Virus record (IMG/VR): IMGVR_UViG_2563366867_000009 | Length of the DNA: 48,304 bases | Source: a virus | Lineage: Duplodnaviria > Heunggongvirae > Uroviricota > Caudoviricetes | Strand: one strand, 5' to 3' | Shown here: one piece after another, positions 6,001 through 18,000 of the stretch | Layout of the letters: the number at the start of each line of letters is the position of its first letter | How positions within the stretch are numbered: the stretch's first letter is position 1 | Position numbers: made by a program

Positions 6001-9000
6001 TAAAGCAAACATGTAATCTTTCTTCTGCATCTAAAGCCTTGCCCATCAAGTGCTTACCACAATCATTTTATCGACGTATGCAGCGCTTCTTTGCAGGTCA
6101 GTATTTTGATTATCGTCAAATTTCTCAGTTGATTTTCAATATGTTTTCATTCGACCAAGTGCAACTGACTTTAGATAGAACCAATTGGAAATGGGGAAAA
6201 CGAAATATTAATATCCTGATGCTCGCAATCGTTTATCGTGGAATAGCGATACCTATCCTTTGGACATTGCTTAATAAACGTGGAAATTCAGATACGAAAG
6301 AGCGTATTGCTTTGATTCAACGCTTTATAGCCATTTTTGGTAAAGACCGTATTGTGAATGTGTTCGCAGACAGAGAGTTTATCGGTGAGCAGTGGTTTAC
6401 ATGGTTAATTGAACAAGACATCAACTTCTGCATTCGTGTTAAAAAAACTTCATTGTCACCAATCATTTAGGAAAGAATCATAAAATTAGTGATTTATTTC
6501 GCCATCTTAAAGTTGGTCAAATTGAATGTCGTAAACGACGGATTTTGGTTGGTCGGGTGAAACTATATATAAGTGCACTACAGTTAGAAAATGGAGAGCT
6601 TTTACTCGTCGTTTCTCCTCAGTTTAATGCCAATGCTATTCAGGATTATGCATTACGCTGGGAAATTGAAACCTTATTCAGTTGTCTCAAAGGACGCGGG
6701 TTTAATCTTGAAAATACGCGCTTGACAGACCCTAGACGAGTGAAAAAATTGATTGCGGTGTTAGCTATAAGCTTCTGTTGGTGTTACTTAACGGGTGAAT
6801 GGCAACATGATCAAAAAAAAGCGATAAAAATAAAGAAGCATGGACGACTCTCAATGAGTTTATTTCGCTATGGTTTAGACTATGTTCAAATGGCGATTCA
6901 GCGTTTAATTGGTTTTGGGAAAAAAGAAGAGTTTAAGGAAATTTTGGCAATTTTAAGAAGGCAGAACCCTGATAGGATAAGGGTTCTGTGAAATTTGTCG
7001 TGTACAGAGAAACTTTATTGTAAATACGCTGTACTTCAGCCTCATCCAGCTCCAGCTTATGGCCTTTACCAACTTTAAGACCTTCAGCCATACGGGCAAA
7101 GTCCTTCAACACAGGCTCATGGACGGTATATCCTATTTGCCCATCCTTGCTCAGCACCAAAATATTGCCGTCATCACCGAAGTGAAATAGAACATTATCT
7201 TTTCCATTTTGCACATATCGCACAACTCCCCGGTGAGATGACTTACTGTAATAAACTTTGAATTTGCTACCGAATACATCCTGTTTCGCGTCATCCACTA
7301 AAACGCTATACTGCGAGTCTTTCGGATATACTGATGCCTGTGCGAAACCCTCAGCACTCACAACCAGAAGCCCTACCAGAGAAGATGACAGAAGTGTCTT
7401 TGTGAATTTTTTACTCATTATGGATATCCTGTTAAATTATCTGTATACAAATCAGCCGCAACACCTCACACTCATAAAGAAATATGATTAATTACGACCT
7501 CATTCAGGATATTCCGAAAATAAATTTAAAAATTAATTTAATAACTTTAGGATTTGTCTTACATTATTCTGGGCATACTTACTCAGGCCCACGCCTACAC
7601 CGCCGGAACAGACATCAGAAAAAACTTACCCTCAATCAGACTTGCTGTTTCACATCTGCTTACACTGTAATTTCTGATCAACATCACAACATTATCCGAA
7701 TTTAACTGTTCAGTTCATCTACAATATTTCCATGCGTGACTTTATATCAGCCCCGCACTTCCGTACGGGGCCATTTCTGTTAATCCACTCCCACTTTTTT
7801 GTTGTACTCGCGGTTAAACCGATCCACGGCAATTTTCATATCCCGCTCTACCGATTTCACCATCGCCGCCTGCTGCGCCAGACTGAGAGTACTGTCGGCG
7901 TAAATGGCATCACGCTGTTTACGCAAATCCTTCAGTCTCTTCCGGGTATCCTGCATAAGCCCGTTCATCGACAATTTTCCGTTGTTCTCGTCAATGAATG
8001 CCGTTCTTTCTGCACCGGTCAGACTCTTCAGCTCTGCGTGGTACTGCGCAACCTCCGTCATCCGGTCATACATCTTCTGCTGGTCAGCATACGGCATCAC
8101 CTCACCCGAAATTTTCCCCAGGAAGGGCACCTGCTGCTCCGGTATATCAATACCGTTCAGCGATTTCACCGCCGCATCTGTGGTTTTGGAAATGAAGCGC
8201 CCTGTCCCTCCGGAGATATAGTCAATCCAGAATTTCAGCGATTCCGGTGTGATATCCACCGCGCCGGGACGATACTGGCTACCACCTGAGAACGCATTCA
8301 GCCAGGATGCAAACGCCTTGTACGCCTCAGGCGTTGAACGTCTGCCCAGCTGGCTGTCCGGTTTCGGTGTGCCAAATGGCATGTTCTCCTGGTAAATCTG
8401 CGCCCCCATGAAGTTTTCATTCATGGCAAGGTTCGCAAACGGACGCAGAATGGTCGGCGCTGCATTTTTCAGCAATGCCCCGGACAGTGTTTCCGACGTT
8501 TCACTGCCCACAGGACTGAATGCCCCCAGGATACCACCGACAACATTACCGGCAGCACGTGAAGCAGTCAGGTCGCCCGCTGCCACACCTTCAGCAGTAT
8601 GCCCGAGCAGGAAGAAAACGTTGTACCCGTAAGGCAGAGGAATACTCCAGTACTCTCCGGCCTTGCCCCCGAACACCGATTTCATAATGACGAGGTTACG
8701 CTCTTTCACATGAGACGGCACCTTGTCATACCAGTTAACCCCGTCATCATCCTCCCCCGCAACACTGCGGTTAAGCGAGCCAAGCAGATAACCCGCTCCC
8801 ACAGCTGCAAGCGCGATTTTCTGCGGTACATTGAGATTCTTCCAGCGAAGGCGCTCCGGTAACGGCCCGTCGCCATTAAGATGTCCGAGCGTTCTCACCA
8901 GGTTTGCGGTCCCCTGAATGCTGGCGTTGGCAAACATATACAGCGAGTTCATCAGCGCTCCCTGCTCACCACGACGGTTAAAGTTCACCGTCATGTTTTT

Positions 9001-15000: not shown

Positions 15001-18000
15001 GTAACGCGAATAGCCGCCCTGCGCCGCATTAATCGTCCCCTGTTCCGTGGCATTTCTGACAATGCCGCTTTTAACGGTCTTCGCCGTGCCCCGCATCGCC
15101 AGATTAAACAACTGAGCATCGCCCAGTTTTGCCGCCATGGCATTCACAGCCAGCAATTCAGGATCGGTTGCCAGCTGCGCGCGCACCTCATCGGCAACAC
15201 GCTCTTTTGCCAGATCCATTTTCTGGCGATCAGTAAGCTGTGCGTGCTGCGGATCTGCATCAATTGACAAAAACGTCTGCTGAAATTTCGGGGACTTCGC
15301 CAGCTCAGAGTAATCCGCGTTAAGAACAGAGTCTGCTGCTGCCATTGCACTCTGCCCCTGTGCGCTGGCTGAGGAATGGGTGATCAGGCCTGCCTGGAAT
15401 AAATCCGGCATTTTTTTATCGACAGCTTCTGCTGCCAGTGCGGTAGCTCTTTCCGGCTGCATCCCTGCCGCAATGTATTTTTTCTCCAGCCCGGCGGTCA
15501 GCACTTTTCGCAGAGTGACTTCACCCAGCTTTTTAGTCACACCGCCTGCAACCATATCAGGTACAAGGGCACCAATCAGGTTTACGCCCTTCGCCACCCA
15601 GACCGCAGAATCATCATATCCTTCAGTCATCGGTGTATTCAGCGCCCGCTGCGCCCCCGGCGACATCTTGCCAGTCAGCCATTCATCCGAGGCTTTAGCG
15701 CCGCCACTGACTGCCTTGCCTGTGACCTTCAGACCTTTACCGACAGTATCAGTAACCGCATTTTTTCCATCAGGCAGAGTGTCGATGACCTCATCCGCCC
15801 CCTTGCTGCCACCGACAAAAATATCCTGAACAGTTGCGACTCCCGGCAGCCCCATACGGCTGAACTCATTTAAAATACGCGCCCCTGTTTTTACCGGGTT
15901 CTGAATCATCGCATCACCGAGTCCACGGGCCATTTCCCCTGCCCCCCGGACGGACTGGGCGACACCTTTCCCCATAGTTGGCAATACATCGCCCAGGCTG
16001 AACGACGTGCTGTTGTCCTTCCAGCGATTGGGATCGGAGAAAAACGCATCATAGCTGTCAGTCTCGCCCGGCAGCTGAATGTTCAGGCTGTTGCGGTTCT
16101 GGTTGCCAAATTGCGCTTCAGGGCGCTGTTCATCGGAATAAGCCATACAGACTCCATAAAAAAACCCGGCACAATGACCGGGTATCAGGAAATAGTATTA
16201 ACGGGAATGGTGAATTACTGCGCGTAATTCTGTTTCAGACCACGGATAAACTCAGATGCAGAGGCCGCACTATCATCTCTGGCCTGTTCCCCCCTGGCCT
16301 TTTGAATACGGAGAAAATTCGCATACCCGTTCTCCAGCAATTTCTGATTCTGAGGCTCCAGCATTTCTGGCTGACGGGAAGCAACTTCTCTGGCGAATGC
16401 CTGCTTATCCGGATCATCACCCGCCCAACTGGTAATCCCTTGTTGAATTTTTTGCTGCTGAATTTTCTGCTGATGTTGCGGTGAACCAGTTGCAGCATAA
16501 TATTCATCCACCGCAGCCTGTGCATTACCGCCATTCTTGATCGCGTCCGCCGCTACGTTGCTGGCCCCCTTCTGAAGCTCTTTCAGAGAAAGTCCCTGCT
16601 GCTTCGGCATAAAATAACCATAATTTTTCGATATCTCTGCAAATTTGCTGCGATCCCTGACCTGAGCGATAGCCTTATCAACGGGTATCGCCAGCACGGT
16701 TTGATCATCAGGGTGCGCACTGCCGTATTCTGTTACAGGTTTATGCGCGGTGGAGCCATCGCTGTATGTGAGATCAAGGCCAATAAGTACGTACCCTTCC
16801 TGCTGCGCCGGTACGATACTGCCAATCCTGGCCCCTTTTATCGTTTTTTCCCCGGTTGAATCAGGCATGCCAATACGCTGTTGTAGTTCCGGGGCAAACA
16901 CGCCGGAAAGCACATCGAGATTTTCCGGGGTATTGAGTGAAGCGATCGCCCTGTCCGGCTTGTCATCAAAGATTTTTTGCAGGTTGTTCACGGCCTGACC
17001 CGCTTTCGCTACATAGCCATCATTCGCCATCAGCCTCAGCGGATTACCCTCTGACAACTGGCCGTAAAGACGCATTGCTGCATCCCGATCGCCAGCATCC
17101 ACAGCCTTTCCAAGCGCCGCCATCACAGGCTGATCGCGCGCCAGCATATCGTTATACTCAAGCCGTCGCTGGTTGTATTTCTGCATCCGGAGTCGCTGCT
17201 GCTCCATACCCAGCGACGCATTCCGGTAATTCTGGTTGGCGTTAAACTCCCTTTCCTGCAGTGCATAATTACGGTCGTCGACTTTGGCTCTGTAATCAAA
17301 GTTCCGCTGATCAACGTCTTTATTATGTTCAAACTGCGACTGTGCAAATTCAAAATCGCGCTCGTTATTTTTCTGTTGTTGAGCAAGCTGTGCTTCTCGC
17401 AAACCAAGTTCCTTACGACGGGTCATTGCCTGGTCAACCGTGCTGAATCCGGCAAGTAAACCCTGTGCAAATCCGCTCATTCACCACTCCTTAAAACAAA
17501 GAACCAGCAATACCACCTATGACAGCACCAATAGCCGCACCGGGGAGACCACCAACAGCAGCGCCCATAGCTGCACCCGTACCAATTCCCGTGCCGATAT
17601 TCTGTTTGTTCTGCGCTTTCTGTTGCGCCGCCATCTGTTTGTTCGCGGCCTCAATTTCTTCACGTCGTCTGTCGGCATCACTTATTCCCTGTAATGCCTC
17701 ACGCCGCGACTGATTCGCAATATCCAGTAAACCGTATCCCATATTGCCCCCTTACGCTGACACCAGTTTTCCGCCAACACTCAGTTGTTGTCTTGCAGGT
17801 GCAGAAGCCCCCGTCAGTATGTTCATCTGGCGATCCTGCTCTGCTTCACGGATACCATTTTTCGCGCCAGCAATTGCCAGAGCATTACGCAAACCCAGTG
17901 TGTTACTGTTGGGATTATCCGGGCGGCTTACCCCGTATCTCGCCATCTGGTTATCCTGCGCCATCTGCGCTGTACGGAGACTGGAAGTGGCAAGGCCGCC

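Follow-up and report, generated by a model that had tools for sequence, protein, structure and literature searches.

The 48,304-nucleotide (nt) stretch of viral DNA analysed here (IMG/VR record IMGVR_UViG_2563366867_000009; the whole stretch is referred to below as the window) carries on its minus strand a giant open reading frame (ORF) encoding 2788 amino acids (aa). Our explanation of this ORF, to which we give as a whole a probability of roughly 75%, is that its product is the very large protein carried inside the virions of short-tailed lambdoid phages of the 933W/Φ24B/Sp5 group, a protein whose conserved ends would serve in the particle and its tail, and whose enzymatic middle part, with two zincin-type metallopeptidase domains, would reach the host cell and act there on proteins.

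Orthologues of the giant protein in virions and in genetic studies

The position and match of the ORF were as follows.

7780..16146, minus strand: giant ORF with an ATG start, 2788 aa plus stop; matches PHROG 616 over its full length

The single ORF, which occupies 17.3% of the window, was recovered exactly where a preliminary description made from the sequence alone had placed it (7780-16146, 17% of the window), and the strand, which that description did not give, is now added. The 8.4-kb gene matched 186 phage records at 90-99% nucleotide identity, including 933W, VT2-Sakai/Sp5, Φ24B, Min27 and many Stx1/Stx2-converting phages, and was present in 425 of 5426 complete Escherichia coli genomes. 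The PGAP name in the E. coli genomes is "LPD38 (or LPD5) domain-containing protein", and most GenBank records call the product "hypothetical". The giant protein shared 94% aa identity with gp47 of Φ24B over its full length, with both HExxH motifs (see below) intact; the lowest conservation was seen at aa 1-200 and aa 801-1000 (77% identity in the latter), and the C-terminal module was ca. 98% identical at the aa level to that of VT2-Sakai. The giant ORF is almost certainly the orthologue of Sp5 ORF80/ECs1242 and of Φ24B gp47 (vb_24B_48), a phage-type polyvalent protein. Earlier publications have already described the gene and the class to which it belongs, located its product in virions and shown that it is essential, and the published essentiality and virion data apply directly to the protein of the window.

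In Sp5, nine late genes are essential, ORF80/ECs1242 (2,793 aa) among them; its deletion mutant (ΔORF80) formed neither plaques nor lysogens and was complemented in trans, and the gene was essential even on E. coli K-12 MG1655 (PMC5155283). The ΔORF80 particles had normal heads with packaged, DNase-resistant DNA and did not bind the tail-fibre antibody, and deletion of the neighbouring ORF79 (421 aa) gave the same phenotype (PMC5155283). Because the Sp5 orthologue is essential and needed for tail completion, the giant protein is not an accessory factor, a point that the preliminary description had missed. A role as a head-maturation protease was considered separately and rejected, since the ΔORF80 heads were normal and filled with DNA. 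In the record of phage GER2 (MG710528.1 71836-82917), the closest phage match (97.7% identity), the 8.4-kb gene was found in two pieces spanning 11.1 kb, which implies an insertion of ca. 2.7 kb inside this normally essential gene.

In Φ24B, gp47 (an ORF of 2811 codons) was detected in purified virions and was not visible in the cryo-electron microscopy map, and it was proposed to be an encapsidated ejection protein (bioRxiv 10.64898/2026.04.10.717836). Its total of 10,962 peptide-spectrum matches (PSMs) was the second highest, the capsid protein having 17,998 (supplementary table of the same preprint), and its signal was concentrated in four gel slices above the portal band; tail contents were seen inside full particles and not in emptied ones (bioRxiv 10.64898/2026.04.10.717836). 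The orthologue of the 421-aa gene, gp48, gave 1634 PSMs in the same virions (bioRxiv 10.64898/2026.04.10.717836). The virion peptides of gp47 spanned residues 133 to 2701, that is, they were distributed along the whole chain. The idea in the preliminary description of a possible virion enzyme was supported, as regards presence in virions, by this 94%-identical orthologue, which is abundant there.

Domain architecture

The whole giant protein was scanned against Pfam, and LPD5, LPD1, MuF_C and LPD38 were all detected above the Pfam cut-offs. These four domains, together with two further peptidase domains, are in agreement with the multidomain protein that had been anticipated. The features of the chain, from the N-terminus, were as follows.

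14827..16146, minus strand: N-terminal module (aa 1-440), common to Vibrio phage D62 (aa 161-408, 30% identity)
13027..14826, minus strand: variable region (aa 441-1040), charged, Pro/Gln-rich, no recognised domain
12565..13014, minus strand: LPD5 (aa 1045-1194), Pfam PF18799, E=3e-45, confidently modelled
11845..12564, minus strand: metallopeptidase domain 1 (aa 1195-1434), a probable lethal-factor/MtfA-like gluzincin with HEWFH
within metallopeptidase domain 1, minus strand: LPD1 (aa 1355-1434), Pfam
11107..11757, minus strand: metallopeptidase domain 2 (aa 1464-1680), compact HExxxH-clade zincin that contains HEIIH
10597..11007, minus strand: PBECR/MuF-C predicted RNase (aa 1714-1850), Pfam PF18819, E=1e-17
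7783..10584, minus strand: C-terminal module (aa 1855-2788), containing LPD38 (Pfam, E=3e-48)

The architecture is that of two conserved end modules around a payload that consists of LPD5, two unrelated zincin-type domains and PBECR/MuF-C. The N-terminal module contains a mildly hydrophobic segment (aa 181-199) and a faint glycine-zipper (aa 406-433), and wherever it was detectable in relatives (40 proteins), it started no more than 240 residues from the N-terminus. The C-terminal module (ca. 930 aa) contains a hydrophobic segment (aa 2440-2462), LPD38 (aa 2471-2676, nt 8119-8736) and a low-charge block (aa 2501-2600); it is common to podophages of Vibrio (41% identity) and Bacillus, and it also occurs in the Ralstonia Gervaise/GP4-like and Burkholderia Bcep22-like phages (26% identity). 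In relatives, it ended a median of 6 residues from the C-terminus, with peptidase 2 located upstream of it.

The MuF_C match of Pfam spans aa 1744-1833 and scored 64.3 bits against a cut-off of 27.6. MuF-C is an RNase-like domain of the BECR fold, for which an active-site configuration of His plus Ser/Thr has been described (Iyer et al. 2017, section 19; PMC5512222). Among 33 homologues, K1739, H1746, S1810 and Y1832 were invariant, so far as the alignment can tell leaving the predicted catalytic His and Ser of the PBECR domain in place.

Both HExxH motifs probably lie in zincin-type domains

The two motifs are HEWFH at aa 1278-1282 (nt 12301-12315) and HEIIH at aa 1545-1549 (nt 11500-11514). 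Because the giant protein holds only 35 His residues, the number of HExxH motifs expected from its composition is only 0.031; in 5000 shuffles, the probability of at least one was 0.028 and that of at least two was 0.0002, so that the earlier statement that two motifs exceed chance holds.

The LPD5-peptidase 1-LPD1 module was found to be widespread (1172 matches), many of the matches being stand-alone proteins of 450-800 aa, and in the homologues LPD5 was always accompanied by peptidase 1. Among 75 homologues less than 70% identical, H1257, E1259, H1278, E1279, H1282, D1285, E1369, R1373 and E1376 were invariant. In the phage metallopeptidase (MPTase) clade of Iyer et al. 2017, strand 2 ends in a conserved His, and HEXXH is followed by an Asp at a distance of three residues (PMC5512222); the invariant residues match this signature, which assigns peptidase 1 to the HEXXH+Asp-type clade. 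In the AlphaFold model of aa 1040-1450 (pLDDT 85.9, pTM 0.79), HEWFH lies within one helix (model residues 237-250) preceded by a helix and strands, and the invariant Glu residues E1369 and E1376 lie on a later helix (328-346). Since this Glu-bearing helix falls inside LPD1, LPD1 is in effect the C-terminal part of peptidase 1. A Foldseek search of the PDB with the three-domain model gave no significant match. The modelled fold offers moderate evidence that peptidase 1 is a zincin, and the combined evidence is strong.

Stand-alone LPD5-peptidase 1-LPD1 proteins were also seen in two other settings: one adjoins VirB4/TrbL/M23 conjugation genes (L007/L008, 9001-10956) and another lies in a phage-like contig right after a 988-aa SLT protein (L009, 9001-11388). 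In profile-profile comparison, a peptidase-2-like domain was located directly downstream of LPD1 in 8 of 74 stand-alone homologues, and the two peptidase families did not align to each other.

For region 2, a word-indexed homologue search returned only enterobacterial fragments and close relatives; exhaustive HMMER searching yielded 414 cluster representatives of peptidase 2, nearly all within proteins of 1,400-6,000 aa. When 143 of these domains were aligned, H1545 was present in 141, and E1546, H1549 and E1601 (nt 11344-11346) in all 143. The motif took the form HExxxH in 135 of the 143, and HExxHH was found only in the protein of the window and its four closest relatives. The usual HExxxH form places peptidase 2 in the HEXXXH clade of Iyer et al., and HEIIHH owes its canonical HExxH reading solely to the deletion of one residue, which its nearest enterobacterial relatives have as well. 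The model of peptidase 2 (core pLDDT >90) comprises a helix, a three-stranded sheet, the HExxH helix and a Glu-bearing helix, which is the arrangement of a compact zincin.

Both domains resemble MtfA, lethal factor, Pro-Pro endopeptidases, Spartan/Wss1 and ArdC, and their structural neighbours include botulinum neurotoxin (BoNT). No Pfam peptidase family was above threshold for aa 1190-1360 or aa 1440-1700, even at E<=10, and in the isolated peptidase segments only noise-level matches to M76, M10 and MATCAP were obtained. PF18818, which we take to be MPTase-PolyVal, was among the Pfam peptidase families without a threshold match. No peptidase emerged when the PDB was searched by sequence, whether the query was the entire protein, either domain profile or the segment of peptidase 1 by itself. 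Structure prediction, which had been suggested as a check and was run here on the peptidase segments, detected domains and placed both motifs in apparent zincin-type folds with an invariant H-E-H...E, which upholds the zincin-like reading of the motifs. Conserved and structurally well placed as they are, both HExxH motifs very probably mark genuine zincin sites. The notion that they are chance occurrences or sit in non-catalytic helices, for which the empty Foldseek search of the PDB and the lack of a Pfam peptidase match could be cited, is strongly disfavoured and has hardly any probability left. Each of the two domains belongs to a peptidase clade that is widespread among polyvalent proteins; these clades number hundreds of cluster representatives and are covered by no Pfam model.

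A recurrent motif at the domain junctions

Three occurrences of the motif F/Y-S-[R/K/Q], one of them degenerate, were located in the linkers of the giant protein.

11806..11826, minus strand: AFYSRKG (aa 1441-1447), between LPD1 and peptidase 2
about aa 1671-1675, minus strand: QYPRS, degenerate (QYSR in Φ24B), between peptidase 2 and PBECR
10507..10527, minus strand: PYYSRTS (aa 1874-1880), between PBECR and the C-terminal module

Of 142 homologues, 70 have [FY]S[RQK] on the N-terminal side of the HE of peptidase 2, at a distance of 81-100 residues, and 62 have it 120-139 residues past the HE. It was almost absent inside peptidase 2 and sits in an otherwise unconserved polar linker. Counted by flank, the motif was found upstream of peptidase 2 in 73 of 126 and downstream in 67 of 134, where ca. 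6% would be expected by chance per interval. PBECR was flanked in the same manner (upstream in 22 of 28, downstream in 15 of 24), and the motif also brackets peptidase 2 in Vibrio D62. The sites flanking peptidase 2 are outside the confident core of the model, the upstream one lying before the modelled segment and the downstream one in a low-pLDDT stretch. Autoproteolysis of polyvalent proteins was proposed by Iyer et al. 2017, who described no site (PMC5512222). On the strength of its positional consistency, which is what gives the motif its significance, F/Y-S-[R/K/Q] is a candidate processing or recognition site.

Genomic context

The late genes are all on the minus strand, and the giant ORF is the last gene of the portal-capsid-tail block. 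This block encodes a P22-type portal, a capsid protein of the N4-gp56 type, an SU10-type adaptor and a collagen-repeat tail fibre, followed by nozzle/needle-type genes, lom, several small genes and the 421-aa gene, after which the giant ORF comes. The preliminary description had set the ORF among ejection/tail-type genes, and the neighbours found here (portal, capsid, adaptor, tail fibre, nozzle/needle and lom, all on the minus strand) agree with this. A large ORF at the terminase position had no Pfam match. Two features lie directly upstream of the giant ORF.

16164..16183, minus strand: terminator-like hairpin with a run of seven T, ca. 11 nt before the ATG and upstream of the Shine-Dalgarno sequence of the giant ORF
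16215..17480, minus strand: 421-aa partner gene, PHROG 601, orthologue of Sp5 ORF79 and Φ24B gp48

The hairpin, read on the minus strand as 16183..16164, corresponds to the terminator after which the ORF had been said to begin; it falls after the stop of the 421-aa gene and is a match to the consensus pattern only, with a folding z-score of -1.65. A gene of similar size occupies the position of the partner gene in Vibrio, Ralstonia and Burkholderia phages, and weak similarity was detected only for the Vibrio one. Two genes upstream of the giant ORF, an 83-aa protein (17491-17742, minus strand) matched the YMGG-type glycine-zipper (E=4.5e-6); the Φ24B ORF at the same position (86 aa) gave just 13 PSMs in virions (bioRxiv 10.64898/2026.04.10.717836).

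At the usual position of stxAB, the window carries genes for an N6-adenine methylase (46160..48121) and a type I specificity subunit (44982..46100), both on the minus strand and upstream of a nanS-p-like esterase gene (42398..44371). This pair, located where stxAB sits, indicates that the prophage is a Shiga toxin gene (stx)-less member of the 933W/Φ24B group.

Several further genes were observed around the late block. Just past the end of the phage late operon, a 1353-aa serine-protease autotransporter of the SPATE type is encoded at 274-4335 on the minus strand (Peptidase_S6, E=3e-83; Autotransporter beta-domain, E=3e-36), and it is probably virulence cargo. A YadA-anchor (trimeric autotransporter) gene, also on the minus strand, was found in two parts, the N-terminal part at 6933..7418 and the C-terminal part at 5231..5839; the plus-strand ORFs between them (5901..6470 and 6545..6991) both match the DDE_Tnp_1 transposase family, the GC content drops to 0.40 in the 5231-7418 stretch, and the gene appears to have been interrupted by an insertion sequence. 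Within the tail-gene block, between the tail fibre and a nozzle-type gene, lies the gene for another YadA-type protein (503 aa, 25330-26841, minus strand), with YadA_head repeats and a YadA_anchor.

A phosphoadenosine-phosphosulfate reductase gene recurs near the giant gene in other genomes (L001, 17382-19850; L004, 1-644; L005, 1-348) and is lacking in the window. In an E. coli prophage, it is located downstream of the giant gene alongside IbrB-like and Panacea-domain genes; it lies two genes upstream in Ralstonia Gervaise and three upstream in Burkholderia BcepIL02.

Discussion

Based on these results, the function of the giant protein is proposed to be as described below. In the particle, the end modules would hold the chain in the capsid and in the portal/tail channel, where it would be needed for tail completion. 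At infection, the chain would leave by way of the tail, either before the DNA or along with it; ejection into the host is, on the evidence reviewed here, somewhat better than an even prospect. The peptidases would then cut proteins and not the cell wall. Their most plausible target would be the chain of which they are part, cleaved at the F/Y-S-[R/K/Q] linkers around peptidase 2 and the RNase domain, so that the payload domains would be set free inside the host cell; host proteins may be cut too. Self-processing at the junction motif is a tentative proposal, and so is the fuller picture of a self-dismantling polyprotein that would be packaged intact, threaded out and cut by its own HExxxH-clade peptidase at the bracketing linkers.

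Four points weigh against this explanation or parts of it. The ΔORF80 phenotype is unlike that of classical ejection-protein mutants, which makes a structural or assembly role certain and leaves the effector role to be inferred. The literature searched, including that on the orthologues, contained no measurements of zinc binding, catalysis, ejection or cleavage. The motif-containing virion peptides of Φ24B all end at ...F/Y-S-R, so that the bonds inside the tripeptide are uncut in virions; the proteome consists of tryptic peptides with total counts, in which a cut after Arg cannot be distinguished from a trypsin cut. Finally, the giants of Ralstonia and Burkholderia phages and of N4 show no enrichment of the motif, and counted per protein it is not enriched either.

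Alternatively, the peptidases may be effectors that cut host proteins of defence or housekeeping after injection and do not process their own chain, which is possible but doubtful. Such a function is one of the possible roles listed by Iyer et al. (PMC5512222); it would suit the structural neighbours, which include toxins (lethal factor, BoNT) and the ArdC protease, and the presence of the stand-alone module in settings where conjugation systems or phages pass proteins into a recipient cell. However, the linker motif that brackets peptidase 2 and PBECR fits cis-processing more easily. Self-processing and the cleavage of host proteins are not mutually exclusive.

The Φ24B preprint proposed that a peptidase digests the cross-links of peptidoglycan so that the ejected protein can build a periplasmic conduit, and it called MuF-C the metallopeptidase that digests peptidoglycan (bioRxiv 10.64898/2026.04.10.717836). 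Since MuF-C is RNase-like according to Iyer et al., the preprint misattributed the peptidase, and the peptidase domains are the two unannotated regions mapped here, which resemble protein and peptide endopeptidases. The stand-alone LPD5-peptidase-LPD1 module, moreover, adjoins a dedicated M23 or SLT enzyme in type IV secretion system (T4SS) and phage contexts. Peptidases that act on the cell wall are, as far as is known, members of families M23 and M15, in which HExxH is not used. For these reasons, namely the nature of MuF-C, the resemblance to endopeptidases and the M23/SLT neighbours of the stand-alone module, wall digestion is disfavoured and appears improbable, even though no lysozyme or SLT domain is recognisable in the giant protein, unlike in its Ralstonia and Burkholderia relatives, where an SLT is found at the N-terminus, so that a wall-breaching activity is left unaccounted for.

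PHROG and the GenBank names of relatives suggest a DarB-like antirestriction protein, and aa 2346-2676 did match PHROG 10089 'DarB-like antirestriction' weakly, the C-terminal module being common to the Bcep22- and Gervaise-type proteins that bear the DarB name. However, the shared part is only the C-terminal LPD38 module, and the methylase and SNF2/helicase domains that define DarB, present in BcepIL02 and Gervaise, are absent from the giant protein by Pfam; in addition, the essentiality of the Sp5 orthologue on MG1655 and its effect on tail completion would be unexpected for an antirestriction accessory factor. We therefore regard this function as very unlikely. The sole hint of the Sp5 authors for ORF80 was a match to COG1483 "AAA+" (PMC5155283), but an AAA+ ATPase driving an energy-requiring step of tail assembly, which could account for the loss of tail-fibre labelling in ΔORF80, has next to no probability, as Walker A and Walker B motifs are absent throughout the protein and no P-loop or AAA family of Pfam matched it even at E<=1 to 10.

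The spread of Shiga-toxin genes is the work of short-tailed Stx phages, in whose genomes the giant gene makes up ca. 14%. It is essential, yet it has been named only by its LPD domains. What is new here is the mapping of both peptidase domains, the HExxxH-to-HExxH deletion in the enterobacterial clade, the recognition of LPD1 as part of peptidase 1, the corrected attribution of MuF-C and the junction motif. Two peptidase sites, an RNase-like site and three linker motifs have thereby been placed on exact residues as testable targets, for which the deletion/complementation system of Sp5 already exists. The analysis also argues against the idea of cell-wall digestion and corrects the description of MuF-C as a peptidase in the Φ24B preprint. 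If the giant protein is indeed a self-dismantling polyprotein, a whole podovirus lineage (Stx and Vibrio phages, with a related chassis in GP4- and Bcep22-like phages) would rely on one essential chain to complete the tail, to serve in ejection and to carry effector domains that can be exchanged.

Comparison with known systems

The closest counterparts, Sp5 ORF80 and Φ24B gp47, are likewise encoded by the final late gene, next after the 421-aa gene, and have both HExxH motifs intact; they differ in size (2793/2794 aa against 2788 aa in the window), and the prophage of the window is stx-less. Polyvalent proteins, their LPD domains and the zincin MPTase as their commonest hub domain were defined by Iyer et al. 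2017, who also predicted PBECR/MuF-C to be an RNase (PMC5512222). The protein of the window is likewise giant and multidomain, is encoded in the virion block and has LPD5, LPD1, LPD38, two MPTase types and PBECR. Genes of this class sit among late/virion genes or with T4SS genes, and the giant ORF is found among late genes. While the class has been framed as 'weaponry' in conflicts, the member described here is essential for an infectious particle, judging from the Sp5 orthologue.

The giants of the Bcep22-like (Lessievirus), GP4/Gervaise-like and Vibrio D62 phages have a homologous C-terminal module of ca. 900 aa with LPD38 and a related virion architecture, and those of the Bcep22-like, Gervaise-like and Vibrio phages are also the last virion gene, after a virion gene of ca. 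470-530 aa. JC1 gp69 is virion-associated by mass spectrometry, and the same paper cites earlier mass spectrometry of Bcep22 virions. The payload of the Burkholderia/Ralstonia giants is different and comprises SLT, an Eco57I-type methylase, an SNF2 helicase, LPD3 and a different HExxH domain. Vibrio D62 shares the N-terminal module, peptidase 2 and the C-terminal module, and is without LPD5/peptidase 1 and PBECR.

The N4 virion RNA polymerase (vRNAP) gp50 (3,500 aa) is likewise encapsidated, its gene closes the virion block of a phage whose capsid protein is of the same family, and it contains an HExxH (HELVH, residue 2228); it is injected according to the literature as summarised by Iyer et al. 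2017 (PMC5512222). Homology to vRNAP was considered and rejected, as no module showed similarity to gp50 by hidden Markov model (HMM) or BLAST, and the vRNAP domains of Pfam, of which N4 gp50 has four, were not found in the giant protein. The likeness is one of analogy and shared class, not orthology.

Among known peptidases, the closest are the gluzincins of the lethal factor/MtfA/Pro-Pro endopeptidase type and the compact zincins (minigluzincins, Spartan/Wss1 and the ArdC protease domain). The ejection proteins of podoviruses, gp7/gp16/gp20 of P22 and gp14/gp15/gp16 of T7, are stored in the head, exit through the tail and help the DNA to cross the envelope. The role proposed for the giant protein is the same, with one giant chain bearing an enzymatic payload in place of three proteins; the general Pfam scan, in which no specific homology test was made, showed no Pfam family of the P22/T7 ejection proteins. 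Unlike with these proteins, the loss of the Sp5 orthologue also abolishes tail-fibre attachment. If the chain does dismantle itself, it would resemble the many viral polyproteins that flank a protease with its own sites.

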